From an uncultured Gemmatimonadota bacterium (lineage in GTDB: Bacteria > JAAXHH01 > JABIQT01): a DNA stretch of 64,000 nucleotides. Where the stretch lies: NCBI GenBank assembly GCA_964470965.1, contig CAYYIS010000010.1, positions 25,581 through 89,580 of the forward strand. The letters run 5' to 3'. The notes below the pieces were generated by a model, which had not been told where the DNA came from, did no database searches, and worked only from the letters and a program-made list of their open reading frames with translations. Below are positions 7,986 to 43,030 of the stretch, in pieces. The position numbers were made by a program, and so were the translations under genes. Within the stretch, counting starts at the first letter, position 1. The number at the start of each line of letters is the position of its first letter.

Positions 7986-8606
7986 TTAAAGCCCACCCTC
8001 GTCAAAAATCTGCCTGAGGCCGGTTGCTACAAATTGTGGCTCATCTGCGTGACGGAACCGGTAGCGGAGTTTGCCGCGGTGATCGATCAGGTACAGCCAG
8101 GTGGAATGGTTCATCAGGTACCCGGCGGCCGTTTCACCTTCCACTTTCTCGTAAGATGCGCCATATTGCATCACTACTCCGTCGATCTCATCCGGCGTAC
8201 CCGTAAGCCCGAGCACATCGATAGTAGAGAAATACTGCAAATACTCCTTCATCTGCTCCGGCGAGTCTCGGCCCGGATCGATGGTGATGTAAAGGGTGCG
8301 GATTTCCTGGTCATCCTTTAAATCCGCCATCTCGAACACGGTGGTAAGTTTGGACATCAATGTCGGGCAGGCATCGGGACAAAATGTATAACCGAAAAAT
8401 ATCAGAAACACGGTGCCCCGATTATCATGGAGATTGAACGGTAGTCCGTTATGGTCCGTAAGCGTGAAGTCGCCACCGAAATCCCCGTAGTCCTGGAATG
8501 CGGGGATATCCGCGGAGGGAACGATCGCCGGCGATTCGGGTTCAGGGCCGCACCCGAAAGCGACAGCGAGGAGCAGGCCCAAAAGACTACAACGCATGGG
8601 AGACAT
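7986..8606 (-). CDS. SCO1/SenC copper chaperone (thioredoxin fold)
   Basis: CPDACP CxxxC motif; lipoprotein-like signal; about 200 aa. Confidence 0.85.
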   Translation of the reverse strand: MSPMRCSLLGLLLAVAFGCGPEPESPAIVPSADIPAFQDYGDFGGDFTLTDHNGLPFNLHDNRGTVFLIFFGYTFCPDACPTLMSKLTTVFEMADLKDDQEIRTLYITIDPGRDSPEQMKEYLQYFSTIDVLGLTGTPDEIDGVVMQYGASYEKVEGETAAGYLMNHSTWLYLIDHRGKLRYRFRHADEPQFVATGLRQIFDEGGL

Positions 8607-8611
8607 AGGGG

Positions 8612-9097
8612 CTATTCCCCTGAAGCCGGTTGCGTGGTGGCCCCGGCCGAGTTTTCGGATTTCCTGACAAACGCCTTGGCTATCCGGGTTGTCTGATCTT
8701 TGAAATACAGGATCAGAAACACACTGTCGTCTTCCGCGGGCTGTGATTTCATGCCGAACAGCATCAGGTGGTATCCACCCGGCTTCAACTCCGCTTTGCT
8801 GCCGCCCGGTATCACGATTTCGGAAACGGGCCGCATTTTCATCATTTCATTTTCGTAGGCCATCTCATGTATCTCGACAGTATCTGCCTCCACTGTCTCC
8901 ACCGCTAAGAGTGCATTGTCCTGCAGGGATTTATTTTCAATTACCATGAACCCGGCGGTCACGTCACTTGACGGCGGCGCGGCCCGTATCCAGGCATCGG
9001 TTATCTGGATCGGATCCCGTTGCTGACAACTGACACCGATCACGACGAGGACCAGTAAAACGCGATAGTCTAAAAGTTTCCATTTCATATCGGCCAT
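8612..9097 (-). CDS. Periplasmic copper chaperone PCu(A)C (DUF461)
   Basis: H(M)x10Mx21HxM-type motifs: IHEMAYENEMMKMRPV and GGYHLMLFG; signal peptide. Confidence 0.75.
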   Translation of the reverse strand: MADMKWKLLDYRVLLVLVVIGVSCQQRDPIQITDAWIRAAPPSSDVTAGFMVIENKSLQDNALLAVETVEADTVEIHEMAYENEMMKMRPVSEIVIPGGSKAELKPGGYHLMLFGMKSQPAEDDSVFLILYFKDQTTRIAKAFVRKSENSAGATTQPASGE

Positions 9098-9103
9098 AGT
9101 AGG

Positions 9104-9592
9104 TTATTTGTCAGAGTCCTGTAGTGCATTGATGTAGTAGGCAATTTTGACACGTTCGTCGCCGTCGATATGGGGAAACGCCGGCATCGCGGACGAGGCG
9201 CCCGCCACACCCCAGTTGATCGTTTTCGCTATTGAGCGTATGGTCCGGCCGTTTTGATAGACCGCCCGATTCCGAAAATCTCCGGGTTGTGGTTTCAATG
9301 TGACTGCCACCGGGCCATCTCCGCGCCCTTCCATGCCATGGCACAACGCGCATCCGTGTTGTCTATACAACACGTGACCTTCCTGGATTAACGCCGCCGT
9401 GGCTCCTGTGGAATCGAGAACCGTCTGGGCATCCGCATCATGCTGAATCCTCCGTGCCAAAACCGACTCGGGCGTAGGGCAGCACGCGCCATCCGTTTCT
9501 ACCACCGGCAGAGGCCGAAGATCCGCGCCTTCGCATGCGAAGTACAGAAGACAAGCAAACGACAACAGAAGAAGTTTGAAATATCTTGACAT
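9104..9592 (-). CDS. Class I monohaem cytochrome c lipoprotein. The true start is likely the internal Met at 9592; the longest ORF extends to 9919 and overlaps vanZ.
   Basis: CALCHGMEG haem-binding site; lipoprotein-like signal LLYFAC. Confidence 0.65.
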   Translation of the reverse strand: MSRYFKLLLLSFACLLYFACEGADLRPLPVVETDGACCPTPESVLARRIQHDADAQTVLDSTGATAALIQEGHVLYRQHGCALCHGMEGRGDGPVAVTLKPQPGDFRNRAVYQNGRTIRSIAKTINWGVAGASSAMPAFPHIDGDERVKIAYYINALQDSDK

Positions 9593-9707
9593 CGGAATCC
9601 ATTCACCGGTGTTTAAACCACAACAAGACGTTCGGGCAAGACAAAATACGCTGCTTTTTCTTGAAGTGTCAAGAGGATAAGAGCAGGCGGCGAAATTCTC
9701 CAGAGAC

Positions 9708-10133
9708 TCAGCCTTTATTTTTACTTCGCTTCCTCCGTACACACATGATACACGCCCCCAGAATGGCGCCGGCAGTGTTTCTGATGATGTCTTCCACTGC
9801 GGGATAGCGCTGCGGCACAAAATATTGATGCGCCTCATCTGATATACCGTACAGAACGGTAGCGGCCAAACCAATCCAGATAGGGTTTTTATGACCCCTG
9901 AAGCGTAGAGCCCGGACAAGCAGGAGCATTAGAATACCAAATTCCGTGACGTGGACGGCGTCTTTGATACGTTGAATATGTATAGGGTCCTTCATGCCTG
10001 AAGCCTGCCGGGTTGCCTCATCCGCTTCGCCTCCCGGAAGAGAGGATCCGATGAATATCAGAAGTGCCCAGAGAAACGGCGGCCACCAGGCTGCCGCGCG
10101 GGATTTGGTGGGTGATGTCATAGAGATCCGCAA
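9708..10133 (-). CDS. VanZ-like family membrane protein
   Basis: SDEAHQYFVPQRY and multiple TM helices typical of VanZ-like proteins. Confidence 0.6.
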   Translation of the reverse strand: MRISMTSPTKSRAAAWWPPFLWALLIFIGSSLPGGEADEATRQASGMKDPIHIQRIKDAVHVTEFGILMLLLVRALRFRGHKNPIWIGLAATVLYGISDEAHQYFVPQRYPAVEDIIRNTAGAILGACIMCVRRKRSKNKG

Positions 10134-10211
10134 TAAAAAACGGAAAGGGAGCCATGCAGATAAACAGTCTCCCTTTCCGTTCTATTTACAACTGGCCGCC
10201 ATGTGTAGGTT

Positions 10212-10449: not shown

Positions 10450-11424
10450 TTAGGCTATATCCATAATGGCCTGAGTCACTATGTTCTGAGTCATCTCGAT
10501 TTTGTATTCATTATCGCTCATCGGGTCGGCTTCTTGCAATGCTCGCTGAGCCGCTTCCATTGCGACCGATTCCGTGATCTGCTTGCCTTGCAGGTATTGC
10601 TCCACCTCCGGTACACGCCAGGGTACCGGGGCCACGCCACCCAGCACCACACTGGCTTCCTGGCAGGTGTTGCCTGACATGGTCATGTTGAGCGCCACGC
10701 TGGCCATGGCAAAGTCGATGGAATCCCGCTCACGAACTTTGATGTAGATGCCCTTCGTGTTTGGTTTCGGTGCGGGGACGATGATCTCGGAGACGAATTC
10801 ATTCGCCCGCAGGCCGTTTTCGCGCATCACGTTCATCTCGGGCAGCACGAAGAAATCATCCAGGAGTTCAACCCGTTCGCCCCGCTGCCCCATGATTTTC
10901 ACGGAGGCGTTGAGCGACATCAATGCCACGGCCGAGTCTGACGGATGGACGATGTAGCAGGGACCGCCGCCGATGATGGCGTGGTACCTGTTGACTCCGC
11001 GAACCGAATAGCAGGTATCCCCGCCCTTCTTGAGGCAGTCGAAATCCTCGCTACGGTAGTACCAGCAGCGAGGCCTCTGGCAGATATTTCCGGCGATCGT
11101 GCCTACATTACGGATCTGTGGCGACGCGATCACGCTAACAGCCTGCTGTAGCACGCTGTATTGTTTGTCGATCATTTCGTTGTGTTCCACATCCGTGAGC
11201 GTTGTGAGCGGACCGATCTTCAATCCGTCGTCTTCCTGGCGGATGTAACTGAGTCCAGGAATTGATTTTAGGTTCACCACACGGTCCGGTGTGGCTATGT
11301 ATTCCTTCAATTCGCCGACAAGATCGGTACCGCCGGCCAGAACCTGGGCCTGGCCGAATCTCCGGCCAAGGAGAGACGGCACCTTGGCGGCGCTCGTCGC
11401 ATTGACGTAGGCAAATTTTTTCAT
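10450..11424 (-). CDS. Xanthine dehydrogenase/CO dehydrogenase-family FAD-binding medium subunit (CoxM/XdhB-like)
   Basis: AGGTDLVGELK FAD-binding motif of molybdopterin dehydrogenases; about 324 aa. Confidence 0.85.
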   Translation of the reverse strand: MKKFAYVNATSAAKVPSLLGRRFGQAQVLAGGTDLVGELKEYIATPDRVVNLKSIPGLSYIRQEDDGLKIGPLTTLTDVEHNEMIDKQYSVLQQAVSVIASPQIRNVGTIAGNICQRPRCWYYRSEDFDCLKKGGDTCYSVRGVNRYHAIIGGGPCYIVHPSDSAVALMSLNASVKIMGQRGERVELLDDFFVLPEMNVMRENGLRANEFVSEIIVPAPKPNTKGIYIKVRERDSIDFAMASVALNMTMSGNTCQEASVVLGGVAPVPWRVPEVEQYLQGKQITESVAMEAAQRALQEADPMSDNEYKIEMTQNIVTQAIMDIA

Positions 11425-11427
11425 AAT

Positions 11428-13650
11428 TTATCCCTCCCTCACTTCAGCCAGAGCGGCCAGCACTTTATCCGGTGTAACGGGTATTGCCCTTACGCGCGCT
11501 CCACATGCATTATAAACCGCATTGGCGATGGCCGGCGCTGTCGGAATGATCGGGGGTTCGCCGATGCCGATGACACCGCGCTCCGGCTGATCATAGGCCA
11601 CGACCTCGATCTCCGGAATGTCCATGGCGCCGATGACCCGGTAGGCTTCCAGATTAGGATTGACCATGTAACCGGCCCGGGGATCCATGATGCGTTCTTC
11701 GTAGAGTCCGTATCCGATACCCATCAACACACCACCGTTGACCTGGCTTTCCCACAGTAATGGATTCATGATCAGGCCGCTGGAATTCACCGCCACGACA
11801 CGTATTACTTTCACTACACCGGTTGCCGTGTTCACTTCCGCCTCGACGAATTGTACGGTGGGGACACCGCTGCTGGAGTAGCCCGGCACCCATTGCCCCT
11901 GGACTATAAGGGGCTCATCACCCAACTGTGCCGCCGCTTGCTGCCAGGTCATGCTCTTGGACGGATCCGACGTGACGAACACCTTGCCGTCTTTTGCTTC
12001 CAGATCGTGCGGCGAAACGCCGAATATTGAGGAGGCGAATGTATCGAAAAGTTTCAATTTCGCCATCTGTACCGTGTTCTTCACTGCCGGTGATACGGAG
12101 GCGCACGTGGTGCTGCCGCCGCTACCGCCCGAGGGCGGGTAGTTGGTATCACCGATCTTAACGATGATATCTTCCAGGGTCAGACCAAATTCTTCCGCTG
12201 CGATCTGGGCGATAACGGTCTTGGTTCCCACACCTACATCTTGAGTGCCGCACCGGATTTCAACACTGCCGTCCGGATGAATCACACCTTCTGCCTTGGT
12301 CCTTCCGCCGCCACCGCCCCATACGCCAGAGCCCATTCCCATGCCGCGTTGAATGCCGGTCGCGGGACCCGGTGTCTGCCGGCGTTTGCTCCATCCGAAT
12401 TTCTCGGCGCCGATTTTGACCATCTCCCGCCGGGTTTCATTCGGATCGTTTTTCTGCCGTAATTCCATGGGGTCCATGTCGAGCTTAACTGCCAGCTCGT
12501 CCATGATGGATTCCATCGCGAAAGCAGCCTGTGGATGTCCCGGTGCACGCAGCGCAGCCTGGGGACCGCCGTGTGTGTACACGTCTATCTGTTCGACGCG
12601 AAAGTTAGGTATTTCGTAAAGATAGGGCGCTCCCGGAAGGCCGGCCCGGCCGGCGATACCGCCGGATCCGAAGTTTTTCCGTTTGTACGCCACGATCGTC
12701 CCGTCACTTTTTGCGCCGATTTCCACACTCTGAAATGAATCCGGCCGGTTACCGGTGGTCAGGTGCTCTTCCTTACGGGTGAGCATGAGTTTGACCGGTA
12801 CTCCGGCTTTTCTCGCCAGGAGTGCGGCAACCGCATATTCTGGCCGCGGTCCCAGCTTACTTCCGAAGCCTCCGCCCATGTGGTCTTTGATGACGCGTAC
12901 GTCGGAATTGGGAATCCCGAAGAACTGGGACAGACCGCCCTGGGTCGCGGAGATCGCCTGGGTCGAAGCCCAGAGCGTCAGTTTTCCGCCTTCCCAGTGG
13001 GCGATGGACCCGTGTGTTTCCAGAGACACGTGGGTGTGCACTTCCGTCTTGTAATCCGCGTCGACCTTCACATCCGCTTCAGCAAATCCGGCATTTACAT
13101 CGCCCTGCTCGTTGACGCGCGGTTCGCCGGCGTTGGGCCGGTCGTCCTGAACTTGTGCGGCTCCGTTTTCCATGGCCTTATCCGCATGGACCACGAACGG
13201 GAGTTCCGTATATTCGACTTCGATCAGGTGAAGGGCATCCTCTGCAATTTCTGGCGTCATGGCCGCTACGGCCGCCACTTCCTGGCCGGCATACCGGCAC
13301 TCGCGCCGTAACAGGTCGCCGGCTCCTTCGTCATCCGGAAGAATGACGACCTTCACGCCAGGCAGGGCCATGGCTTGGGTCGCATCGATCCTGGTGACCC
13401 TCGCTCTCGGATAGGCGGAACGCAGGATTTTTCCGTACAGCATGCCGGGAAACTTCATGTCATACGTATATTTTGCGCTGCCGGTGACTTTTTCAACCGC
13501 GTCGATCCGGGTGTGGCGTTGTCCCACATATTTCATGTCAGAGAGGTCGCCCCATCCTTCCACACCGGTGTCCGGCACATCGACCCAACTTTCCACGGTC
13601 TGGCCCCGTCTCCGGGTTACGATTTTAACTTTTTTCATCTTTATCTGCAT
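11428..13650 (-). CDS. Xanthine dehydrogenase-family molybdopterin-binding large subunit (aldehyde oxidase/CoxL-like)
   Basis: MGGGFGSKL Mo-cofactor motif; 740 aa. It lacks the form-I CODH VAYRCSFR loop. Confidence 0.9.
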   Translation of the reverse strand: MQIKMKKVKIVTRRRGQTVESWVDVPDTGVEGWGDLSDMKYVGQRHTRIDAVEKVTGSAKYTYDMKFPGMLYGKILRSAYPRARVTRIDATQAMALPGVKVVILPDDEGAGDLLRRECRYAGQEVAAVAAMTPEIAEDALHLIEVEYTELPFVVHADKAMENGAAQVQDDRPNAGEPRVNEQGDVNAGFAEADVKVDADYKTEVHTHVSLETHGSIAHWEGGKLTLWASTQAISATQGGLSQFFGIPNSDVRVIKDHMGGGFGSKLGPRPEYAVAALLARKAGVPVKLMLTRKEEHLTTGNRPDSFQSVEIGAKSDGTIVAYKRKNFGSGGIAGRAGLPGAPYLYEIPNFRVEQIDVYTHGGPQAALRAPGHPQAAFAMESIMDELAVKLDMDPMELRQKNDPNETRREMVKIGAEKFGWSKRRQTPGPATGIQRGMGMGSGVWGGGGGRTKAEGVIHPDGSVEIRCGTQDVGVGTKTVIAQIAAEEFGLTLEDIIVKIGDTNYPPSGGSGGSTTCASVSPAVKNTVQMAKLKLFDTFASSIFGVSPHDLEAKDGKVFVTSDPSKSMTWQQAAAQLGDEPLIVQGQWVPGYSSSGVPTVQFVEAEVNTATGVVKVIRVVAVNSSGLIMNPLLWESQVNGGVLMGIGYGLYEERIMDPRAGYMVNPNLEAYRVIGAMDIPEIEVVAYDQPERGVIGIGEPPIIPTAPAIANAVYNACGARVRAIPVTPDKVLAALAEVREG

Positions 13651-13654
13651 CGTA

Positions 13655-14323
13655 TCACCCTCCGTTCCGCATTTTCTGCGCGGCGGCGAGAGCGGCCTCG
13701 AAGACCCGCGGATAGGTACCGCACCGACATATATTTCCGGATACTCCGCGTTTCACTTCCTCAAGCGTAGGATTGTTATTTTGATCGAGCAGCGCTTTCG
13801 TGGAAACGACAAAGCCCGGCGTACAGAAGCCGCACATCAACGCATCTTTCTCGATAAACGCCTCCTGAACGGGATGCAGTTTATCGGCGTCGGCGATTCC
13901 TTCGACCGTGGTAATCTCTTTGTCCTCCGCGTCGAGGGCAAGCATGGTACAGCTGTAGACGGTCCTACCGTTGATGATGACCGTGCATGCCCCGCATTCT
14001 CCACGGTCACACACGAGTTTCGATCCGGTAATTTCGAGCTGATTCCTCAACACAGAAGAAAGTGTCGCGCGCGCTTCTATATTCACCAGGTGCTTCTTGC
14101 CGTTTATGTTGAGCTGGATCTGTGTTTCGGTCACACCGGGGAGTTCATCGATCGATTGCTCGGCCTCCGCCTGGCTTATCAGCACGGCAGGGGCCACCGC
14201 GGCCGTCACGGCACCAGTGCCCACCCCTTTTAAGAATCCACGTCTGGTAATCGACAGGCTGCCGGATACCGGTGTCTGAGATTCCTCGTGGATTTGCTGT
14301 CCATCATGTTGCTTCTCAACCAC
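13655..14323 (-). CDS. [2Fe-2S]-binding small subunit of the molybdoenzyme, carrying a twin-arginine (TAT) signal peptide
   Basis: SITRRGFLKGVGTGAVTAAVAPAVL TAT signal; CGACTV and CGFC...C ferredoxin-type cysteine clusters. Confidence 0.85.
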   Translation of the reverse strand: MVEKQHDGQQIHEESQTPVSGSLSITRRGFLKGVGTGAVTAAVAPAVLISQAEAEQSIDELPGVTETQIQLNINGKKHLVNIEARATLSSVLRNQLEITGSKLVCDRGECGACTVIINGRTVYSCTMLALDAEDKEITTVEGIADADKLHPVQEAFIEKDALMCGFCTPGFVVSTKALLDQNNNPTLEEVKRGVSGNICRCGTYPRVFEAALAAAQKMRNGG

Positions 14324-14754: not shown

Positions 14755-15414
14755 ATGAAAAACGCTGTATTTGGCCTCTTCCTTACGCTTGCCATAGCAT
14801 CTGTGGCACTTGCCCGCACCCCGGTTATTTCGGGAGACTATGTTGAAGTCCGTTCGAATCACATCATAGCCGGCGGGTGCACCTATTCCGCCGAAGCGGT
14901 CTACGATGGCAACCGGGCAGTGATGTCCTGGCGGATCACCGGAGGCGAACTGGCGAACCTTTCGGTTGTAGCGGTAGTCCTGGGGGAGGGCAACCTCCAA
15001 CTGGGCGACCACGCCCGCGAAACCGTCCTTTTCATCGATCACGGTGCCACTCCGGCACAGCTGGTGATGCTGGTGGATACCTTTGTTGAACGTTACGGTG
15101 ATGTGTTCGGTACGATCAAAACAGTCCAGTCGGCAGCTATCGACTTCAGTCATAACGGCGGCGATGCATTCCGGATAACGATTCCCGGTGAAGTCCAGGT
15201 CGTAACCCGCACCATGGTAGAAGCGGACCACGAATATTCATGCGACCCGCAGGTCTGGTACGGTGCGTTCGCCGGTGACGTCCCGGTGCGGCTTGCACAG
15301 ACCGCCAGGAATGCCTACAGCGGCAAGTTGCTGAATTCCAATTGGAAGACGGTCAACAAGCGAAGCGCCTACATCGGTAAATTCTCGTTTGCGGAAGACT
15401 TGGCCGTCCGTTAA
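14755..15414 (+). CDS. Secreted hypothetical protein (219 aa) with a signal peptide
   Basis: MKNAVFGLFLTLAIASVALA signal; SD aggagg; followed by an intrinsic terminator. Confidence 0.6.
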   Translation: MKNAVFGLFLTLAIASVALARTPVISGDYVEVRSNHIIAGGCTYSAEAVYDGNRAVMSWRITGGELANLSVVAVVLGEGNLQLGDHARETVLFIDHGATPAQLVMLVDTFVERYGDVFGTIKTVQSAAIDFSHNGGDAFRITIPGEVQVVTRTMVEADHEYSCDPQVWYGAFAGDVPVRLAQTARNAYSGKLLNSNWKTVNKRSAYIGKFSFAEDLAVR

Positions 15415-15440
15415 GTTTTCAAAACGATTGAAATAGTTAA

Positions 15441-15490
15441 GAACAGCCCTGGCCGTTCATGGACAGGGCTGTTCTATGTTTTGGTATTTT
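15441..15490 (+). terminator. Rho-independent terminator
   Basis: gaacagccctg / cagggctgttc 11-bp stem followed by tatgttttggtatttt. Confidence 0.6.
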
Positions 15491-15669
15491 AGCGTGTACT
15501 TATTATGGGTTGGAGCGTATCATTGACATTGCCGGCTAATGAAGGTTTCTTAATGTTGTTTGTATTGTTTGTAATTAGATTCCCGAAGTCTGTGCAACCT
15601 GTTTTTTGTTAAAGGCTGTTGAGCGTCTTTTGACTTACAAATTACCCACGTCAACAATGGAGGCATAAT

Positions 15670-16191
15670 TTGATGAATTCCCTTATTAGAGTGCGGGCGC
15701 GCAAAGACGATGGCTCGGTAGAACTGACCATTGGTTTCTCTAAAGCATTACTTGTTACCATGATCGTTCTTTCCCTGGGTTTGATTTCTCTGGGGTACGG
15801 TGTTGTGCCTGCCGAGTCTCAGGCAAAAAAGAGCGGTAAGAAGGCCATCAATCCTAACCAGGTCTACAGTGAAGCCGTCGAAGCCGGTGATTTCGTGTTT
15901 CTCTCCGGTAAGATTGCATATCGCCAGGGCAAGGTGGTTCCTGGTGGTGTGAAAGCCGAAACAAAGTACGTGCTGGACAATCTCAAAATCGCACTGGCCA
16001 AGTCGGGACTGGAGATGGATGATGTGGTCCGGACCACCGTATATCTGAAGACGTTGGAAGATTACGCCGGCATGAATGAAGTGTACCAGACCTACTGGGA
16101 AAACGATCCTCCTGCACGGACGACGGTTGAAGCCGGTGTTGTACTGAATACTAGCATTGAGATCGATATTATCGCCTATCGTGGACAGTAG
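15670..16191 (+). CDS. RidA/YjgF/TdcF-family (enamine/imine deaminase-like) protein with an N-terminal transmembrane anchor
   Basis: C-terminal 120 aa match the RidA fold (NPNQVYSEAVEAGDFVFLSGKIA ... TTVYLKTLEDYAGMNEVY); the N-terminal TM is LLVTMIVLSLGLISLGYGVV. Confidence 0.75.
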   Translation: MMNSLIRVRARKDDGSVELTIGFSKALLVTMIVLSLGLISLGYGVVPAESQAKKSGKKAINPNQVYSEAVEAGDFVFLSGKIAYRQGKVVPGGVKAETKYVLDNLKIALAKSGLEMDDVVRTTVYLKTLEDYAGMNEVYQTYWENDPPARTTVEAGVVLNTSIEIDIIAYRGQ

Positions 16192-16378
16192 TCGCGCAAC
16201 CGGATTATGGACCACTGAACGTTGGTCGGTCGGACAGGAAAAAACCCTTGTCCCCGTACACTTTTCGATTTATATTGATTCGTGCTGAATCGGGAGGATT
16301 CGAAACCAATTGCCGTAGTGCGCGTATATCCGCTTTATAGAACATTAGTTTTAGTTTCATTATACAGGAGGCGTTACA

Positions 16379-16903
16379 ATGAAGCGTTTTTTAGCACTTT
16401 TTGCGGTATGCACGGCCCTTTCTATCGTGATGGGGCCGTCCGTCACCTTTGCCCAGCATGACGACCCTGATATGGAATGGGAAGACATGGATGAGATGGC
16501 GGAAGATGAAGGCGTGGAGGGGGTAGAGTCCAAAGTCCTTTACGAACGCTGGGGCGGCAAGGTCGCTATCAAGGGCGTGGTCAGCGAATTCACCTCCCGT
16601 GTCCTGGGTGACGAACGTGTCAACATGCACTTTTTGGAAACCGATAAGGCTGCTTGGCGGCTGCAGCTGGTCGGTCAGCTTTCCGATGCTTCGGGCGGTC
16701 CCATGTTTATGGGCAAGACCCTCCTGGTTATGCACCAGGACCTTGGATTGGCTGATGAAGATCTGGCGATTGTTACGGGGCATTTGAGCATGGCCATGGA
16801 CTGGTTCGAGTTCGAGCAGGCTGAAAAGGACGAACTTCTGGTGAAATTGAAGCTCAAAACACCTGAAACAGCGGCACCCGATGCGCCTGAAGAACCCAAT
16901 TAA
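16379..16903 (+). CDS. Secreted group-I truncated-haemoglobin-like protein (2/2 globin) with an acidic N-terminal extension
   Basis: VLYERWGGKVAIKGVVSEFTSRVLGDERVNMHF aligns to the trHbN B-helix region. The proximal His (LLVMHQDL) is retained; the B10 position is Thr rather than Tyr; signal peptide ends ...FAQ. Confidence 0.6.
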   Translation: MKRFLALFAVCTALSIVMGPSVTFAQHDDPDMEWEDMDEMAEDEGVEGVESKVLYERWGGKVAIKGVVSEFTSRVLGDERVNMHFLETDKAAWRLQLVGQLSDASGGPMFMGKTLLVMHQDLGLADEDLAIVTGHLSMAMDWFEFEQAEKDELLVKLKLKTPETAAPDAPEEPN

Positions 16904-16925
16904 AACCATAATGAGGAGTGATTGG

Positions 16926-17327
16926 ATGAAAAGAGATAAAAGCTCTCTCGCTGTGGTTATAGTGGGCGCTTTTGCCATGGGAGCATTGTTCACACTCGGA
17001 ACATTATCCTCTGGTGTCTCGCTTGCCCAGGACAACGCTGACGCTGGGTCTGCCATTTTCAACGACCATGAATGCCGGGGTTGCCACACGGTTCAGGCTG
17101 CGAAAATCGAATTAGATATCGGTGAACTTGAGCCGGATGAGGTGGATGAGGACGCTCCGGATCTGTCCGACGCCGGGCTCAAGCATGATCAAGAATGGAT
17201 CAAGCAGTATCTGAAGAAGAAGGTAAAGCTTAACGATGAAAAGCATGAAAAGAAATTCCGCGGTACCGATGAGGAATTCGAAACGTTGACTGCCTGGTTA
17301 TCTGCGTTGAAGACCGAAGCAAAGTAG
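16926..17327 (+). CDS. Monohaem c-type cytochrome (periplasmic) with a Lys/Glu-rich C-terminal tail
   Basis: CRGCH motif; signal peptide; SD aggagtg. Confidence 0.7.
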   Translation: MKRDKSSLAVVIVGAFAMGALFTLGTLSSGVSLAQDNADAGSAIFNDHECRGCHTVQAAKIELDIGELEPDEVDEDAPDLSDAGLKHDQEWIKQYLKKKVKLNDEKHEKKFRGTDEEFETLTAWLSALKTEAK

Positions 17328-17353
17328 AACTGCAGTAAGAAGGGGATACACGC

Positions 17354-18007
17354 ATGCCCGCTCCCTCTATACCTGGTGCCTTTATCATAATCCCCATTGT
17401 GCTGGCGATGGTCTTGGCCTGTATCGTTATTGCCAAACCCGCTATTCTCAGAAACGGTGCCGGGCAGATCTTAGGTTTTTTTGCGCTGTTCCTCCTTCCG
17501 ATCTCGGTCGGAGGAATGGGGGGCGCCATCCTCGACGACAATGCCCAAACTACGGAATACTGTCTATCCTGCCATATTATGGACGACTGGGGCCGGAGTC
17601 TCCATGTGGATGACAGTGAGTTTGTTCCGGCCGATCATTTCCAGAATTATTTGGTCTCCCGTGATAAATCATGTTACGTCTGCCATTCAGACTATGCGTG
17701 GTACGGGGGGATAACTGCCAAAATCCGCGGTATGAAGCATGTGTATGTCCAGTATATCGGGACCATGCCCGAACCGCTTGACATAGAACTGTACGAGCCG
17801 TTCAACAATCGGGAATGTTTGCAGTGCCATCAGGGCGCCCGGAGCTATGAAGAGAGCAGGCATCACCGCAAAGAAGGGGACATGCTCGCCCGGATCAACA
17901 GCAATGCACTCTCCTGCATGGAGAGCAAATGCCATGACGTCCAGCACAATATTGATGAGCTGGACGATTACGATGAAGATGAATTCTGGCAGGAGACAAT
18001 GGATTGA
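17354..18007 (+). CDS. Membrane-anchored multihaem cytochrome c (NapC/NirT/NrfH-like quinol dehydrogenase type)
   Basis: Two N-terminal TM helices; CLSCH, CYVCH and CLQCH plus an atypical CMESKCH (CX4CH) site. Confidence 0.65.
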   Translation: MPAPSIPGAFIIIPIVLAMVLACIVIAKPAILRNGAGQILGFFALFLLPISVGGMGGAILDDNAQTTEYCLSCHIMDDWGRSLHVDDSEFVPADHFQNYLVSRDKSCYVCHSDYAWYGGITAKIRGMKHVYVQYIGTMPEPLDIELYEPFNNRECLQCHQGARSYEESRHHRKEGDMLARINSNALSCMESKCHDVQHNIDELDDYDEDEFWQETMD

Positions 18008-18210
18008 TGCTTGCTCACCTTATGTCTTTTGAACGCGGTGTTCGGATATCCGGTGGTCTTGTCCTTTTGGGGCTGGTCATCGAAATAATAACGCTGAACT
18101 GGTCGCATCCAACCGCGATAATCTGGTACATGACGATCGGCGGCGGATGTTTTTTTATCGGTGTTGTGTATTATCTAGCGTTACTGATGTGGAGTAATAA
18201 AGAGGAATAA
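18007..18210 (+). CDS. Small 2-TM membrane protein (about 67 aa), translationally coupled to the multihaem cytochrome
   Basis: The start overlaps the upstream stop (TTG/ATG ... TGA); two hydrophobic helices. Confidence 0.35.
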   Translation: MLAHLMSFERGVRISGGLVLLGLVIEIITLNWSHPTAIIWYMTIGGGCFFIGVVYYLALLMWSNKEE

Positions 18211-18308
18211 CCGATCTCCCGCTATCCAACCGTATCATCCCACCGTACAGAAGACAATACAGTTTCGTATGAGAACAGGTTCTTCCAGCCTGTCTGGAGT
18301 AATTCCAT

Positions 18309-18968
18309 ATGAATAAAAATTCTAAGCTTTCTCGCCGTTCGTTTTTATCTCGTTCCGTTGCTGTTACGGGTGGTATTATCACTCTGGGTGTACTCGGTGT
18401 ACCCCGGAAGGCCAAGGGACAGGATGCATATGAGTTTGAAGTGTTGACAGACCGCCAGGCCGCGACGGTCGAAGCACTGGCTGAACGAATTATGCCGGGG
18501 GATTCGAACGGACCAGGCGCCACCGATGCACGTGTAGTCGTGTACATCGACAGGGCGCTGGCCACCCATCATGAACATGAAAAAGAAGAAGTCTACGATC
18601 ACGGCCTGGAGTGGTTTGATCGGTTTTCCACAGCGACCCAGGGCAAACCGTTTGTGGAATTGACTGCCGACCTGCAGGATGCGGTGCTTTCCGCTATGGA
18701 TAATCGTCAGAATCCGCCGGAATGGCCGGGTGAAGCCGCCATGACGAGCAGGGCCTGGTTGCGTCACATGATTGAGCATACGATGGAAGGTATGTTCTCC
18801 GATCCCATTTACGGTGGTAATACTAATGAAGCAGGTTGGAAGCTGCTCAATTTCCCCGGTCTGAAACCATTCGGGTACGACCCTCCTTTCGGTTACTATG
18901 ATGCGATCATACCGGAACTTGAATATCCTCCTTTTATACCGTATACAGGTCCGGGTAGAGAAGGATAG
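18309..18968 (+). CDS. Gluconate 2-dehydrogenase subunit 3 family protein, the TAT-signal small partner subunit of GMC dehydrogenases
   Basis: SRRSFLSRSVAVTGG TAT signal; conserved TDRQAATVEALAERIMPGDSNGPGATDARVVVYIDRAL region. Confidence 0.8.
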   Translation: MNKNSKLSRRSFLSRSVAVTGGIITLGVLGVPRKAKGQDAYEFEVLTDRQAATVEALAERIMPGDSNGPGATDARVVVYIDRALATHHEHEKEEVYDHGLEWFDRFSTATQGKPFVELTADLQDAVLSAMDNRQNPPEWPGEAAMTSRAWLRHMIEHTMEGMFSDPIYGGNTNEAGWKLLNFPGLKPFGYDPPFGYYDAIIPELEYPPFIPYTGPGREG

Positions 18969-19004
18969 TGCTGGATCTGAATTTATATCATTCGAGGAGT
19001 ACAG

Positions 19005-20651
19005 ATGCCATATTTGCCCAATCCTAGAATCGATAATCCGGACGTCATCGTGATCGGAACCGGCGCTGCCGGTGGGGTGATGATGAAAGAGCTGGCCAGG
19101 TCGGGGTTGAAGGTGGTTGCGCTGGAGATGGGACCGTGGCTCAAAACGCGAGATTACACACAGGATGAGCTTAAGAGTCATGTTTTGAGGGGTTTGATCA
19201 AATACGATCAGCCGAATACATACCGCCGCGCCGCTGAAGAAGAAGCTGAAGCCATGCATTCGATCAACATGCAGTCCAATGTGGGCGGCGCTACGATCCA
19301 CTGGACCGGCATTGCCTGGCGGTACCATGAATCTGATTTTAAAGAGCGCAGTATGTTCGGAACGGTCGAAGGGGCGGATGTCCAGGACTGGCCCCTCGAT
19401 TACTGGGATCTTGAACCGTACTACGAAAAGGCCGAGTACGAATTCGGTGTGTCCGGGCTGGCAGGCGCCAACCCGTTCGATTCACCTCGCCGCAAGCCAT
19501 ATCCCATGCCTCCGGTTGCCAGAACAGCTTCCGGCGCCATTTCGGATTACGCCGCCTCGAGGCTCGGATGGCACTCGTACCCGGCGCCGCTGGGGATCCT
19601 TTCCCGGAATTACGACGGAAGAGCCAAGAGCATGTACTGCGGTTTCTGCGAAGGATACGGGTGTACTGTAGAAGCAAGATCCAGCTCTCTGGTGACCGAT
19701 GTACCTAAAGCTTTGAAAACAGGTAACTGCGAGTTGCGGTCGAACGCCTGCGTTCGTGAAATCACTGTTGACAAAAACGGTCTGGCCAATGGTGTTGTCT
19801 ATCTCGATGAGAACCTGAACGAACATCAGCTGTCGGCCCGTGTCGTGGCACTGTGCGGTAACGGCATCATGTCGCCCCGGGTGCTTCTGTCATCCAAGTC
19901 ATCTCAATTCCCGGATGGCCTGGCAAACCGTAGCGGCAAAGTCGGCAAACACCTTATGTTCAATTACTACCAGGTGGTCCGGGCGTTTTTCGATCAGGAA
20001 CTGAATGAGCACCAGGGTGTGCTGGATACCAGAATCATCCAGGATTTCTACGAACCCAATCCCGATAAATACGGATTTTTCGGTGGCGGTGTGCTCGAAC
20101 CCCGTGGTGACGGCAGTACCATACACTATGCCAATATGAACGCCCCACGTATTCCGAGATGGGGATCGCGCCGTAAGAAGTGGATTATGGATAACTGGGC
20201 CAAGAAGATGTTTGTGGTGACAAGCATGGAATCGCTTTCTCAGGAATCTAACACGATAGACCTCGACCCCAATGTTACTGACAAGTGGGGGCTGGCCGTT
20301 CCTAGAGTAACCTACAACGTCCATCCGAACGAGTGGAAGCTCGGCGATTTCTTCCGGGCCCGTGCTAAAGATTTACTGGAAGCCGCGGGTGCGCGTCAGA
20401 TATTGGCAGGGCGGAACAGTGTTCCACGTGGTGATGCTCACCTTATGGGATCCTGCCGTATGGGTGACGAACCTGAAACATCGGTGTTGAATAAATTCAA
20501 TCAGTCGCATGATGTGAAGAACCTGTTCGTGGTAGATGGCAGTTGTTTCGTCACGTCGGGCAAGAGTAATCCGACGCTCACGATCCAGGCACTCGCCTAT
20601 CGTTCCAGTGAGTATCTCGTCGAACAAATGAAACAAGGGACAATCGGATAG
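19005..20651 (+). CDS. GMC-family FAD-dependent oxidoreductase (flavoprotein dehydrogenase large subunit)
   Basis: VIVIGTGAAGG Rossmann motif; C-terminal NPTLTIQALAYRSSEYL GMC signature; 548 aa. Confidence 0.9.
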   Translation: MPYLPNPRIDNPDVIVIGTGAAGGVMMKELARSGLKVVALEMGPWLKTRDYTQDELKSHVLRGLIKYDQPNTYRRAAEEEAEAMHSINMQSNVGGATIHWTGIAWRYHESDFKERSMFGTVEGADVQDWPLDYWDLEPYYEKAEYEFGVSGLAGANPFDSPRRKPYPMPPVARTASGAISDYAASRLGWHSYPAPLGILSRNYDGRAKSMYCGFCEGYGCTVEARSSSLVTDVPKALKTGNCELRSNACVREITVDKNGLANGVVYLDENLNEHQLSARVVALCGNGIMSPRVLLSSKSSQFPDGLANRSGKVGKHLMFNYYQVVRAFFDQELNEHQGVLDTRIIQDFYEPNPDKYGFFGGGVLEPRGDGSTIHYANMNAPRIPRWGSRRKKWIMDNWAKKMFVVTSMESLSQESNTIDLDPNVTDKWGLAVPRVTYNVHPNEWKLGDFFRARAKDLLEAAGARQILAGRNSVPRGDAHLMGSCRMGDEPETSVLNKFNQSHDVKNLFVVDGSCFVTSGKSNPTLTIQALAYRSSEYLVEQMKQGTIG

Positions 20652-20667
20652 GGGGTTGTGAACAGGA

Positions 20668-21462
20668 ATGAAAAACATGTACCGAGTTTATCTGCCCGTG
20701 GTTATGATCATATTCTGCCTTTCCGTTAATGGTACATCCCAGGCACAGGAAAAAGCATATGGAAAAGGAGCGACATCCTGGAAACAGGTTGACGGTCCTT
20801 TCTTCGAAACATGCAGCATGTGTCATCAACGGCTTGGAGAGCGGCTTTCTTCGCAGGTTCTCGAATGGCGTAATAGTGTTCATTTCCGTAACGGCGTCTT
20901 CTGCGATTCCTGCCACGGCGGAGATCCTACCAGTACGGTCCTCACTATATCCATGGGGGAAGCCGCGGGGTTCCAATCGGATCCCAGTCCGCAGGAAACG
21001 CCTGACTTCTGCGGTCCAAGTTGCCATCCGACGGCGTTTACCATCAGCGAAGCCAATATTCACACGGAAGACTTTGAGGACAATGACTGGGAACCGAATT
21101 GTGTGACCTGTCACGGCAGCCACGAAGTGCAGGAAGTGAGTCTGGACCTGGTCTCCCTCGAGGAAAAGACCTGTGGTCCGTGCCATTCCCGTGCTTTCTA
21201 TATCCGTCAGACGGAAAAACAATCGCTCACAGATGCGCACCAACTTGTAGAAGATCTGTACATTCAGTTGGAAACGATGCCCGAACAACCCATAAAAAAT
21301 ACCATTCGTGTCCGGCTGGACAAGGCATTCAAAGATCTCCGGGGGCTGGCGCATTACTTCAATCGTCGGCAGATCCGGGCATCCAAAGCACCTATCGACA
21401 GAGAACTGACCTACATTAAATCAATTTTGGATTTCAGGGAAAGTGATGTATTGCGTCAGTAG
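20668..21462 (+). CDS. Multihaem cytochrome c subunit, likely the electron acceptor of the GMC dehydrogenase
   Basis: Four CxxCH motifs (CSMCH, CDSCH, CVTCH, CGPCH) plus a CGPSCH (CX3CH) site; N-terminal signal or anchor. Confidence 0.75.
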   Translation: MKNMYRVYLPVVMIIFCLSVNGTSQAQEKAYGKGATSWKQVDGPFFETCSMCHQRLGERLSSQVLEWRNSVHFRNGVFCDSCHGGDPTSTVLTISMGEAAGFQSDPSPQETPDFCGPSCHPTAFTISEANIHTEDFEDNDWEPNCVTCHGSHEVQEVSLDLVSLEEKTCGPCHSRAFYIRQTEKQSLTDAHQLVEDLYIQLETMPEQPIKNTIRVRLDKAFKDLRGLAHYFNRRQIRASKAPIDRELTYIKSILDFRESDVLRQ

Positions 21463-21500
21463 GATCACTGGTGGAAAAAGAGGTAGTACAACCACACAAT

Positions 21501-21550
21501 GAAAGCCGCCCCAGACTCAATATGAGGCGGCTTTCATTGTGTATTGTCTT
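21501..21550 (+). terminator. Rho-independent terminator closing the dehydrogenase/cytochrome operon
   Basis: gaaagccgcc ... ggcggctttc 10-bp stem with a 16-nt loop, followed by attgtgtattgtctt. Confidence 0.7.
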
Positions 21551-21927
21551 CCTGTAACACTGATGTCCTGTGTGCCGAAAGGTATCACCGTCGAAGGCGA
21601 TGTTGAAGCTGCTGCCGGGGAGTCTGTTGAAATTTGTCACATCCCAGTTCTATTCGGTGAAAACAGAAAAATGGACTGCCGCCACTGACTTATTTCTTGT
21701 CATTTCTCCATTTGAGGTTCTAGTTAGGATTTTTTAAATAGGAAGATCCTCACGTCATAGTCACCGGTCCAGAATAGTAAGTGAATAGTTCACGAACGCC
21801 CAACCGATGTAGAAGCGGTTGTCTAACCTGCGCGATTTTTTCTTGCGACAACGGCCGCAGTGGTGTAGTTTAGAACAGTATGGCAAGCGAGCCATTTCGA
21901 GCCTCCCACATCTTCGGATTGAGACCT

Positions 21928-22986
21928 ATGAAAAGACGCACCCTCATCGCTGCTGCAGGACTGGCTACCGGAGCCCTGATCGGCGCCGAATATTATCTTC
22001 GTTACCGGAATCGCATGATCAACCGCGACCGTTGGTTCCACGAAAGCTACGACGGTTCTCAACCCTATCAGGTGTTTCACAACCGCAGCGGCTGGGAACT
22101 GATGCCAGATTATAACGTCGCGGGTATTCGGATCAATCAGTACGGTTTTCGGGGTGAAGATTTCTCCAGATCGAAAGACGCCGATGTTAAGCGGATAATC
22201 TGCCTCGGCGATTCCACCACATTCGGCCTTGCCGGCGATGAATCGCCCTATCCTTACCATTTGCAACAGCATCTGGGTGACATGGAGCTCCAGTCGCCCT
22301 ACCAGGTTATTAACGCTGGGGTAGAGGGACACAGTTCGGTTAACGGGCTGCTTCGTCTGCCGTGGCTCATAACGCATAAACCGGATATCATGATCATATA
22401 TCTCGGATGGTCCGATTTGTGGATCAGCAACCCGGGTCGTTACCCTGATTTGCGGCGGAAACCGCGGTCGTTCTGGCATTACGGTAACGGACATCATTCC
22501 AGTCTGATGATGTTAGACACGGTTAAGGATGCCCTCGGGTTCAACGGTTATGACCCACCGATCAGTTCCTTTGATCTGGACACGTTCGTGCCAACAAACT
22601 TTGAATTTAACATGAAGCAGATCATCCGGACCTGTAAAAAAGAGCAAATCAGAACCGTTCTGGTGACGCTGCCTACCCTTATCCCCTCTTGCGTGGACCA
22701 GTCGTCCCTGGGGAAGGAGATGCTGGAGAAGTTACGGTATCCAGCCTTTTTCTCACCGGGTGATCTCGACAGCCTGAAGCAGTTATACGAAGTGTACGAC
22801 ACCACGATCCGTACGCTGGCGTACGAAGAAGATGTCGACCTGGTCGACATCAACGACGGTTTCGAAGCCTTTGATAACCGCCGTGACCAGTACTTCCTGG
22901 ATACCAGCCATCCGAATATCGACGGTAACCAGTTGATCGCCCAGATTTTGGCGAATGGGTTATACGACCGCGGTATCGTTGGATAA
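21928..22986 (+). CDS. SGNH/GDSL-family hydrolase with an RR-containing signal peptide
   Basis: ICLGDSTTFG GDSL motif; MKRRTLIAAAGLATGALIGA signal; internal start chosen at 21928. Confidence 0.7.
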   Translation: MKRRTLIAAAGLATGALIGAEYYLRYRNRMINRDRWFHESYDGSQPYQVFHNRSGWELMPDYNVAGIRINQYGFRGEDFSRSKDADVKRIICLGDSTTFGLAGDESPYPYHLQQHLGDMELQSPYQVINAGVEGHSSVNGLLRLPWLITHKPDIMIIYLGWSDLWISNPGRYPDLRRKPRSFWHYGNGHHSSLMMLDTVKDALGFNGYDPPISSFDLDTFVPTNFEFNMKQIIRTCKKEQIRTVLVTLPTLIPSCVDQSSLGKEMLEKLRYPAFFSPGDLDSLKQLYEVYDTTIRTLAYEEDVDLVDINDGFEAFDNRRDQYFLDTSHPNIDGNQLIAQILANGLYDRGIVG

Positions 22987-41877: not shown

Positions 41878-41984
41878 GGGCTAAACCGCAGAACTTTCCT
41901 GCATGAGGTAGAGAGCGTGTGGGATTGTGGTGGTGTGGGAACCATTCTAATTTTTTCCTCCCCCTCCCACATCTTTTCTCAAAA

Positions 41985-42959: not shown

Positions 42960-43030
42960 GATTTACTCCTTTCGGTGATGGTAATATAACAAGGTTGCTT
43001 TTGAGGTCCAAATCATTATATACGGTGGCG

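Follow-up and report, generated by a model that had tools for sequence, protein, structure and literature searches.

Work on heterotrimeric dehydrogenases that depend on flavin adenine dinucleotide (FAD) has centered on Proteobacteria, and biosensor design values these enzymes for their direct electron transfer. Among the membrane-anchored multihaem cytochromes, cM552 provides a precedent for passing electrons from a periplasmic dehydrogenase, hydroxylamine oxidoreductase, into the quinone pool. In the truncated haemoglobin HbN, Tyr B10 and Gln E11 support chemistry with O2 and NO; which reductase serves bacterial truncated haemoglobins physiologically has, to our knowledge, long been a gap. 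We analyzed a 64,000-nucleotide stretch of DNA from an uncultured bacterium (hereafter the window), in which nine genes on the plus strand, g1 to g9, encode a secreted DUF1326-family protein (g1), a RidA-type protein (g2), a secreted truncated haemoglobin-like protein (g3), three c-type cytochromes (g4, g5 and g9), a small membrane peptide (g6) and the small and catalytic subunits of an FAD-dependent dehydrogenase (g7 and g8).

Several described systems lie close to parts of this region. In the FAD-dependent glucose dehydrogenase of Burkholderia cepacia (BcGDH), His105 binds FAD covalently, His476 and Asn519 form the catalytic pair, Cys212, Cys218 and Cys222 ligate a 3Fe-4S cluster, and a disulfide ties Cys213 to the gamma subunit (PMC6719666). 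Cable bacteria encode periplasmic pentahaem cytochromes fused to truncated-haemoglobin domains (lPHCtX), which are proposed to be O2 reductases (PMC11976967). RidA, for its part, is found in the lao-cccA-ridA cluster of Gluconacetobacter diazotrophicus and in a periplasmic LAAO-RidA complex of Chlamydomonas (PMC5053998). The original prediction for the window, made from the DNA letters without database searches, joined the globin, RidA, the secreted protein and the dehydrogenase-cytochrome chain into one module. All nine open reading frames (ORFs) are present, and a hidden Markov model check with Pfam and NCBIfam, with which the PDB and AlphaFold agree, found the domain assignments essentially right. 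The single module, however, disagrees with the comparison of neighborhoods across lineages. We regard the region as probably a neighborhood around a conserved operon, g4-g9, to which accessory genes were added upstream in some lineages.

The g4-g9 operon

Families were assigned with Pfam and NCBIfam, and structures with PDB sequence searches, AlphaFold and Foldseek, while export signals, helices and haem motifs were called with a crude script based on motifs, hydrophobicity and the twin-arginine translocation (TAT) signal. The contexts of the globin and g5 homologues were compared with all window proteins by tblastn, which resolved six arrangements, A to F. Lineage A consists of the window, with the full layout, and L018 (globin 86% identical), a 2.4-kb contig that begins 119 bp upstream of the globin and carries g3 to part of g7. 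Lineage B (L001, L022, L025 and a 27-kb JGI contig; globin 75-76%, g8 88%) has a trio of PaoABC-like genes, g1, g2, g3 and g4-g9, a layout seen in full on the 27-kb contig and in parts on the shorter ones. In lineage C (L005, L026-L029; globin 54%, g8 75%), a class I/II aminotransferase gene and a 348-bp gap precede the globin and g4-g9; neither RidA nor g1 stands at the operon, and the aminotransferase gene takes RidA's upstream place. Lineage D (L009, L010, L019-L021, L023; g8 81-82%, g5 77-79%) carries g4-g9 without g1, g2 or g3. In L009 and L010 an aminotransferase gene is followed by a 260-bp gap and g4-g9, and no globin or RidA match was found on any of the six lineage D contigs, of which four reach 10 kb upstream and L019 and L023 extend less far. 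Lineages E and F have the globin in other surroundings, described below. The order g4-g9 is thus kept in four lineages, with per-gene identities of 52-95%, and the conserved unit is these six genes.

The catalytic part of the unit is encoded by g7 to g9. The dehydrogenase small subunit, g7 (18309-18968, +), belongs to Gluconate_2-dh3 (PF13618, 7.8e-33) and has a twin-arginine motif, SRRSFL, for which the TAT_signal_seq model gave 16.4 bits against a cut-off of 16.7; a sequence search of the PDB returned no meaningful match for it. The FAD-binding GMC catalytic subunit, g8 (19005-20651, +; GMC_oxred_N, PF00732, and GMC_oxred_C, PF05199), begins MPYLPNPRIDNPDVIVIGTGAAGG, and this N-terminus leads straight into GTGAAGG with no export signal. 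Export of g8 would therefore depend on its passage together with g7. The expectation that all nine products are exported was therefore borne out for the eight that have their own signal, but not for g8.

Residues 11-541 of g8 align with the alpha subunit of the Burkholderia cepacia enzyme (6a2u_B, 5.2e-51), and g8 also aligns with the large subunit of Gluconobacter fructose dehydrogenase (FDH; 7w2j_A, 3.5e-50). The segments GGATIHW, DAHLMGS and KSNPTLT align with GGTTWHW, NNHITGS and TVNVTLT, respectively, indicating that the covalent-FAD His and the catalytic His/Asn are kept. By these alignments, g8 belongs to the alcohol- or sugar-oxidizing FAD-GDH/FDH class and is not an amine oxidase. One g8 loop contains exactly three Cys, CGFCEGYGC (C-x2-C-x4-C), which are kept in L005 and L009, of lineages C and D. 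g7 has no Cys at all, and the inter-subunit disulfide is accordingly absent. The third gene, g9 (20668-21462, +), encodes a secreted 264-amino-acid (aa) pentahaem c-type cytochrome (Cytochrome_C7, 31.8 bits; c3_2, 25.8 bits) with four CXXCH motifs and one CX3CH. L005, L009 and L020 keep all five, and the C-terminal ~85 residues have no haem motif. With g8 aligned over its full length, the view that the g7-g8-g9 trio reproduces the order and the subunit logic of membrane-bound FAD dehydrogenases holds.

The first gene of the unit, g4 (16926-17327, +), encodes a monohaem cytochrome c with a signal peptide (PF00034, 29.1 bits) and one CRGCH motif. Its ORF is open from 16881, but the likely start is Met16 at 16926, giving 133 aa, because the relatives are called at 133-137 aa. 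The overlap of g3 and g4 that had been proposed hence becomes a gap of 22 bp. In the g4 clade (the window, L001, L005 and L009), the distal Met of class-I cytochromes is not conserved, and His residues are, which suggests a bis-His, low-potential haem and sets the clade apart from the class-I cytochromes found in front of g5 in other phyla. The operon-linked g4 proteins also share HEC..CH, EKHEKKFRG and an acidic insertion.

The next two genes appear to form a membrane pair. g5 (17354-18007, +) encodes an NrfH/NapC-like tetrahaem cytochrome (NapC/NirT, PF03264, 29.5 bits against a cut-off of 24.1) with two N-terminal transmembrane (TM) helices, not one as in the NapC/NirT/NrfH cytochromes. Its haem motifs are CLSCHIM, CYVCH, CLQCH and CMESKCH (CX4CH). 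The family has 198 homologues of ~210 aa at ~43-50% identity. In the 16 family members compared, all the Cys and His of these motifs are invariant, and all 16 have the two N-terminal helices and FCLSCHIM, an NrfH-type CXXCHxM; the fourth motif is CX4CH in 15 and CXXCH in P0110. Against the NCBIfam cut-offs, g5 scored best with NrfH (32.4/134.2), followed by NapC (25.1/349) and TorC (22.7/478), all far below, and the profile of the family touched NrfH (2j7a_C) weakly, only around the first haem motif. The AlphaFold model of g5, made with 16 homologues, was confident only for the TM hairpin (8-27/35-65), with a predicted local distance difference test score (pLDDT) below 50 in the haem domain. 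g6 (18004-18210, +) is a 68-aa peptide with two TM helices and no family. Its start overlaps the g5 stop, which agrees with the proposed translational coupling.

At every g5 locus that we examined, other phyla included, a monohaem cytochrome c gene lies in front of g5 and a gene for a g6-like 2-TM peptide behind it. This trio ends GMC-free cytochrome operons in Eisenbacteria and on other metagenomic contigs. Because the trio closes unrelated operons that have no GMC gene, g5/g6 can be seen as a portable membrane module. In three such operons (L011 2781-10839, L030 391-5133 and L013 5858-10817), g5/g6 accompany a multihaem cytochrome of ~330-370 aa and a 500-830-aa protein without a Pfam family, one of which has a weak OmpA-barrel match. 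The L011 operon also has Rieske and cytochrome b genes, and its multihaem protein is 30% identical to g9. These operons may encode a conduit of the porin-cytochrome type.

We consider it likely that the core, g4-g9, is a periplasmic respiratory dehydrogenase operon, and we infer its mechanism from gene order and homology, as regards the substrate, the order of the carriers and the direction in which g5 passes electrons. The small subunit g7 would carry the folded g8 flavoprotein across the membrane via TAT, as the gamma subunit of the Burkholderia FAD-dependent glucose dehydrogenase does. In the periplasm, g8 would oxidize a sugar, a polyol or an alcohol, and the FAD electrons would exit via a putative three-Cys iron-sulfur site to the soluble pentahaem g9. 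From g9 they would reach the membrane pair g5/g6, with the monohaem g4 as the probable intermediate, and g5/g6 would exchange electrons with the quinone pool, by the same logic as the relay from hydroxylamine oxidoreductase through c554 and cM552 to quinone.

Several points count against this assignment. The C-x2-C-x4-C spacing in g8 differs from the C-x5-C-x3-C of the characterized 3Fe-4S site, and the neighboring genes gave no consistent clue to the g8 substrate. No sequence relative of g9 was found in the PDB, and g9 is unrelated to the trihaem class-I cytochrome subunits of the characterized enzymes; as the direct acceptor of g7/g8 it is presumed from gene order alone. In addition, g5/g6 may act as a quinol oxidase in the unrelated operons, and flow here may run either way.

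The limits of the transcription unit were examined by RNA folding. A terminator-like hairpin with a U-rich tail ends the operon (21494-21542, +; dG -31.7 kcal/mol, z -8.9), and another lies 3' of g1 (15440-15475, +; dG -25.4 kcal/mol, z -5.6), for which none of 200 shuffles folded as well. Both escaped a terminator pattern scan, whose loop limit they exceed. The terminators proposed at ~15441 and 21501 are thus both strong hairpins, and one or two transcription units bounded by them is a reasonable reading. Tight spacing, also proposed, holds within g3-g9, except for 98 bp between g6 and g7, but not for the 187 bp between g2 and g3 or the 255 bp between g1 and g2. The script flagged N-terminal hydrophobic signals in g1, g3, g4 and g9. 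It flagged 22 of the 62 ORFs of the window (~35%) as exported by its hydrophobicity/TAT test; a run of eight flagged genes is unlikely by chance, yet it is accounted for by the operon structure.

The secreted globin and its N-terminal peptide

Directly upstream of g4, g3 (16379-16903, +) encodes a secreted, group-I (N-type) truncated haemoglobin-like protein (Bac_globin, PF01152, 30.7 bits, 4e-7) with a signal peptide at residues 1-25, an acidic linker and a globin domain at 52-163. PDB sequence searches matched it to cyanoglobin (2.6e-8) and HbN (1e-7). In the AlphaFold model, pLDDT was ~90 over residues 52-163, and residues 1-51 were not confidently placed. The top Foldseek matches were all trHbN, with Mycobacterium tuberculosis HbN the best (template-modelling score 0.76, root-mean-square deviation 2.1 A). 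The proximal His F8 (VMHQD, against QVHQG in HbN), Phe CD1 and the Gly-Gly hinges are aligned, and G59 G60 and G106 G107 are invariant. The distal residues are Thr at B10 (Val in relatives), Trp at E7 and Leu at E11. On the alignments and the model, g3 is a genuine secreted group-I 2/2 globin with a proximal His; the operon can start with its gene or lack it.

The optional character is seen directly in the contigs. The globin is the sole difference between aminotransferase-globin-g4..g9 in L028 and aminotransferase-g4..g9 in L009. It is a clean presence/absence gene, present in three operon lineages at 22-153 bp from g4 and absent from the closer sister lineage D. A loss of the globin in lineage D is the simpler history, because D is closer to the window than C is in every shared protein. 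The cytochromes and the globin are, as originally noted, co-oriented and closely spaced, and their association is real in three lineages; it remains the interesting part of the region.

As for its role, g3 is most likely a periplasmic haem-b protein, predicted to be kept reduced by the adjacent cytochromes and to act on O2 or NO, although it lacks both Tyr B10 and Gln E11, which speaks against that chemistry. Any specific function can be proposed only tentatively. One such proposal makes the globin the terminal acceptor of the chain: electrons from g8, perhaps also quinol electrons via g5/g6, would pass through g9 or g4 to the globin, which would reduce O2 or dioxygenate NO in the periplasm. 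The position of the globin as first operon gene in three lineages, close to g4, fits this proposal, as does the proximal His, which is retained specifically in the operon-linked clade. The pentahaem cytochrome lies in the same operon, a combination for which the cable-bacteria fusions offer a precedent (PMC11976967), and the relatives include a Saanich Inlet metagenome-assembled genome and deep-water metagenomes, whose sample names suggest low-oxygen waters. However, the sister lineage has the operon without the globin, the two polar distal residues are absent, and no CXXCH was found in the best 149 of the 4557 representatives described below, so that no fusion links this clade to the cable-bacteria proteins. 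We regard a terminal-acceptor role as rather unlikely.

All members of the globin family share a 25-residue signal peptide (MKR..., Cys11, Ala13 and [YF]A at 24-25), and it is followed by a decapeptide, QHDDPDMEWE, at the predicted mature N-terminus (g3 residues 26-35; 16454-16483, +). The decapeptide was found in the window, L001, L005, L007, L015-L018, L024 and L025, always at residues 26-35, and apart from one W to L change in L015 it does not vary among members of 97% down to 35% identity. Its codon third positions vary freely, indicating that the peptide, rather than the DNA, is under selection. Conservation at the DNA level, by a regulatory RNA or by recent transfer, is ruled out by the same varying synonymous positions. 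We also rejected a lipoprotein reading of the invariant Cys11: the residue at -1 is Val or Leu in several members, the Cys stands at residue 11, and a canonical A-x-A-like site, [YF]A|Q, follows at 25.

An exhaustive search with a globin profile returned 4557 cluster representatives at E < 1e-3. Among the best 149 of these, roughly half show a signal peptide by a crude test, 60 or more are tandem repeats and six carry the decapeptide, which occurs only on globins within this set; no CXXCH was found in any of the 149. A homologue search with the 40 N-terminal residues of the globin, aimed at the signal peptide and decapeptide on other proteins, gave no candidate that had three 5-residue words in common with them. 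Exported group-I truncated globins are therefore common in metagenomes, and the decapeptide-bearing clade is small: a globin-alignment scan found four loci in 185,579 GTDB species representatives. The tandem repeats of the group-I globin domain (P0131-P0147 and others) reach 12 copies in 1882 aa. Many of the bacterial ones have signal peptides or lipoboxes, and the largest, which lack signals, may be eukaryotic.

The more distant decapeptide globins stand in other neighborhoods. In lineage E (L024; globin 64%, proximal His kept), the globin is followed by LarC, with no cytochrome gene. In lineage F (L007/8 and L015-L017, from Latescibacterota, Zixibacteria and uncultured bacteria; globin 35-40%), the order is HAD, HAD, globin, a CopC-like gene or a superoxide dismutase gene, and LarC. 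DnaG, a GHMP kinase and the two HAD genes form the conserved neighborhood of lineage F, in which the globins, mostly without the proximal His, are followed by the CopC-like gene and then by the LarC-like gene (L007 10562-10936; L016 ~9701-10174; L017 10528-10908; L015 2069-2701), with an Fe/Mn superoxide dismutase replacing the CopC-like gene in L015. As a test of relocation, we looked for the LarC/HAD neighborhood inside the window and did not find it there.

These observations bear on another explanation, in which the globin-like protein is not primarily a binder of haem or gas: its function would lie in the N-terminal peptide, as a copper- or metal-binding or docking element, and its position in the operon would be incidental. 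The decapeptide, invariant under selection at the protein level, is kept where the proximal His has become Leu or Ser (the distant members P0008-10, P0148, P0153, P0164 and P0193), it is also present on P0169, whose globin body is a different one that resembles the general secreted type, and the members without the His adjoin the CopC-like gene and LarC. The operon-linked clade, in contrast, conserves the proximal His and the Gly-Gly hinges down to 54% identity, the fold model is HbN-like with high confidence, and AlphaFold gives the peptide no structure. We accordingly hold a primary function outside haem and gas binding to be doubtful. For the decapeptide itself, docking, metal binding (by its His, Met, Trp and acidic residues, with the CopC-like neighbors of lineage F in mind) and haem ligation are all possible, and it is probably a docking or metal-binding element.

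A narrower proposal combines the two elements: docked via QHDDPDMEWE, the globin would be the dedicated terminal acceptor of the dehydrogenase-multihaem chain, for O2 reduction or NO dioxygenation. We consider this combination still less probable than the unspecified acceptor role. If it were true, the oxidation of a sugar or alcohol, possibly of quinol, would be coupled directly to O2 or NO chemistry outside the cytoplasmic membrane. The globin would then be a free-standing counterpart of the cytochrome-globin fusions of cable bacteria, and, through the operon, the reductase partner of a truncated haemoglobin would be genetically defined.

The genes upstream of the globin

The two remaining genes of the region and the enzyme divergent from them are less widely associated with the operon. 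g2 (15670-16191, +) encodes a RidA-type protein (Ribonuc_L-PSP, PF01042, 1.3e-28; TIGR00004, 93.7 against a cut-off of 106.25; PDB RidA/YjgF matches to 8.6e-24), preceded by GGAGG 6-9 nucleotides 5' of the start. A basic N-terminus and one hydrophobic helix form an N-terminal signal anchor, conserved in L001 and L025, that would place the RidA domain outside the cytoplasm. The equivalent of Arg105 is kept, PPART aligning with FPARS of E. coli RidA. g1 (14755-15414, +) encodes a secreted DUF1326-family protein (PF07040, 28 bits against a cut-off of 25), and it was seen only in the window and in the L001 lineage. g1 is a separate transcription unit and a mere neighbor of the system, because it has a strong terminator of its own. 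No strong hairpin was found 3' of g2 by RNA folding (z -0.15); without a terminator between g2 and g3, co-transcription of RidA in this lineage is possible, which tells against treating it as a mere neighbor.

Divergent from g1, the minus strand encodes a PaoABC-like periplasmic molybdenum hydroxylase (10450-14323) consisting of a 2Fe-2S subunit with a TRRGFL TAT signal (13655-14323, -; Fer2_2), a molybdenum-cofactor subunit (11428-13650, -; MoCoBD_1/2) and an FAD subunit (10450-11424, -; FAD_binding_5, CO_deh_flav_C). Its synteny is confined to the window and the closest relative lineage, P0003, and the enzyme could oxidize aldehydes made in the periplasm. Beside the operon, RidA, g1 and the Pao genes occur only in lineages A and B. 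The exported RidA, the DUF1326 protein and the PaoABC-like enzyme are thus lineage-specific neighbors and not parts of the system.

This distribution bears on the original idea that the nine genes are one module in which a dehydrogenase, using the globin and RidA, drives periplasmic handling of O2 or NO and the quenching of reactive intermediates. The layout Pao-g1-g2-g3-g4..g9 is shared by the window and the lineage whose globin is 76% identical, RidA-globin-g4 is also kept in L025, all the products are predicted to be extracytoplasmic, and there is no strong terminator between g2 and g3. On the other side, g1 is closed off by its strong terminator, the sister lineage with a g8 of 82% identity has the operon without g1-g3, the globin-bearing L005/L028 lineage has an aminotransferase where RidA would be, and the globin homologues at 64% and 35-40% identity stand in other neighborhoods. 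A nine-gene module is therefore improbable. Least probable of all is that RidA serves a periplasmic flavoenzyme by hydrolyzing an imine or enamine from g8 or from the neighboring Mo-hydroxylase: despite the retained Arg105 equivalent, the predicted placement of the RidA domain outside the membrane and the precedents of periplasmic LAAO with RidA and of lao-cccA-ridA (PMC5053998), g8 is of the alcohol/sugar class and not an amine oxidase, and RidA is absent beside the operon in two of the four lineages.

The claim that no described system joins a periplasmic globin and RidA to a GMC-cytochrome chain is likewise weakened by the cytochrome-globin fusions of cable bacteria, by the RidA precedents in Gluconacetobacter and Chlamydomonas and by the numerous exported group-I globins. 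The finding is less remarkable than first proposed, given that the linkage of RidA and the DUF1326 protein is inconsistent and exported truncated globins are common.

Other genes surround the region. Beyond the molybdenum hydroxylase, SCO1/SenC, a PCuAC copper chaperone, a monohaem cytochrome c and a VanZ-like membrane protein are encoded in a row (7986-10133, -). The same set is present on the P0003 contig, and it extends the extracytoplasmic redox and metal stretch to ~13 kb. Downstream of g9, lineages C and D have an amidinotransferase-fold gene of the DDAH/arginine deiminase family on the opposite strand (L005 5526-6435, L009 14266-15180); the window lacks this gene, and g9 is followed there by a GDSL hydrolase gene (21880-22986). 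The window also encodes parts of a type IX secretion system, namely a Por_Secre_tail FG-GAP protein, PorV and a large C25 (gingipain-like) peptidase (38632-47035, -), which fits a bacterium of the FCB group. The closest homologues carry the names Candidatus Latescibacteria or Latescibacterota.

Comparison with described systems

Like the lao-cccA-ridA cluster and the LAAO-RidA complex, the region encodes an exported flavoprotein, a cytochrome c and RidA together. Its flavoprotein, however, is a GMC alcohol/sugar dehydrogenase and not an amino-acid oxidase, and the linkage of RidA is confined to two close lineages. With lPHCtX of the cable bacteria, it shares a periplasmic pentahaem cytochrome and a truncated haemoglobin in one genetic unit, a likeness of composition. 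Here, g3 and g9 are separate genes, g3 having no CXXCH and g9 no globin domain, and they are tied to a flavoprotein dehydrogenase; in addition, the globin is dispensable and its distal pocket lacks the usual polar residues.

Among truncated haemoglobins, HbN, Synechocystis GlbN and Chlamydomonas THB1 have the 2-on-2 fold, His F8, Phe CD1 and the Gly-Gly hinges in common with g3. In contrast to them, g3 adds a cleavable signal peptide, QHDDPDMEWE and the acidic linker, has Thr in place of Tyr B10, Trp at E7 and Leu at E11, and lies in an operon with c-type cytochromes. An operon with a secreted globin beside c-type cytochromes offers concrete candidate redox partners, and the invariant decapeptide is short, sharply defined and easily tested.

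The membrane cytochrome g5 resembles NrfH, NapC, CymA and cM552 in scoring above the PF03264 gathering score, in its four haem motifs and in its membrane anchorage, and its first motif, CXXCHxM, is that of NrfH. It departs from all of them in having two TM helices instead of one, an obligatory 2-TM partner and a CX4CH fourth motif, and its family ends several unrelated cytochrome operons.

The closest likeness in gene order is to the BcGDH gamma-alpha-beta genes, Gluconobacter FDH, gluconate 2-dehydrogenase and sorbitol dehydrogenase, in which a small TAT subunit, a GMC subunit and a cytochrome follow one another as in the region. The BcGDH/FDH type shares with g8 the covalent-FAD His, the catalytic His/Asn and, in the corresponding loop, a group of three Cys. 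Compared with BcGDH, g8 has the C-x2-C-x4-C arrangement without the fourth Cys, and g7 is without Cys. The cytochrome subunit of the described enzymes is a trihaem class-I protein of ~45-50 kDa, whereas g9 is a 264-aa pentahaem protein of the c7/c3 type. We therefore file the g7-g8 core as a variant of the FAD-dependent dehydrogenase complexes, with a different type of cytochrome subunit, and not as a member of any named enzyme. Upstream of this core, the region adds the NrfH-like cytochrome, the 2-TM peptide and the monohaem cytochrome c, presumably as a link to the membrane and the quinones. A known catalytic pair would thus feed a soluble pentahaem cytochrome and, encoded separately, a portable NrfH-like module, which widens the routes by which such dehydrogenases may reach respiration in uncultured bacteria of the FCB group.

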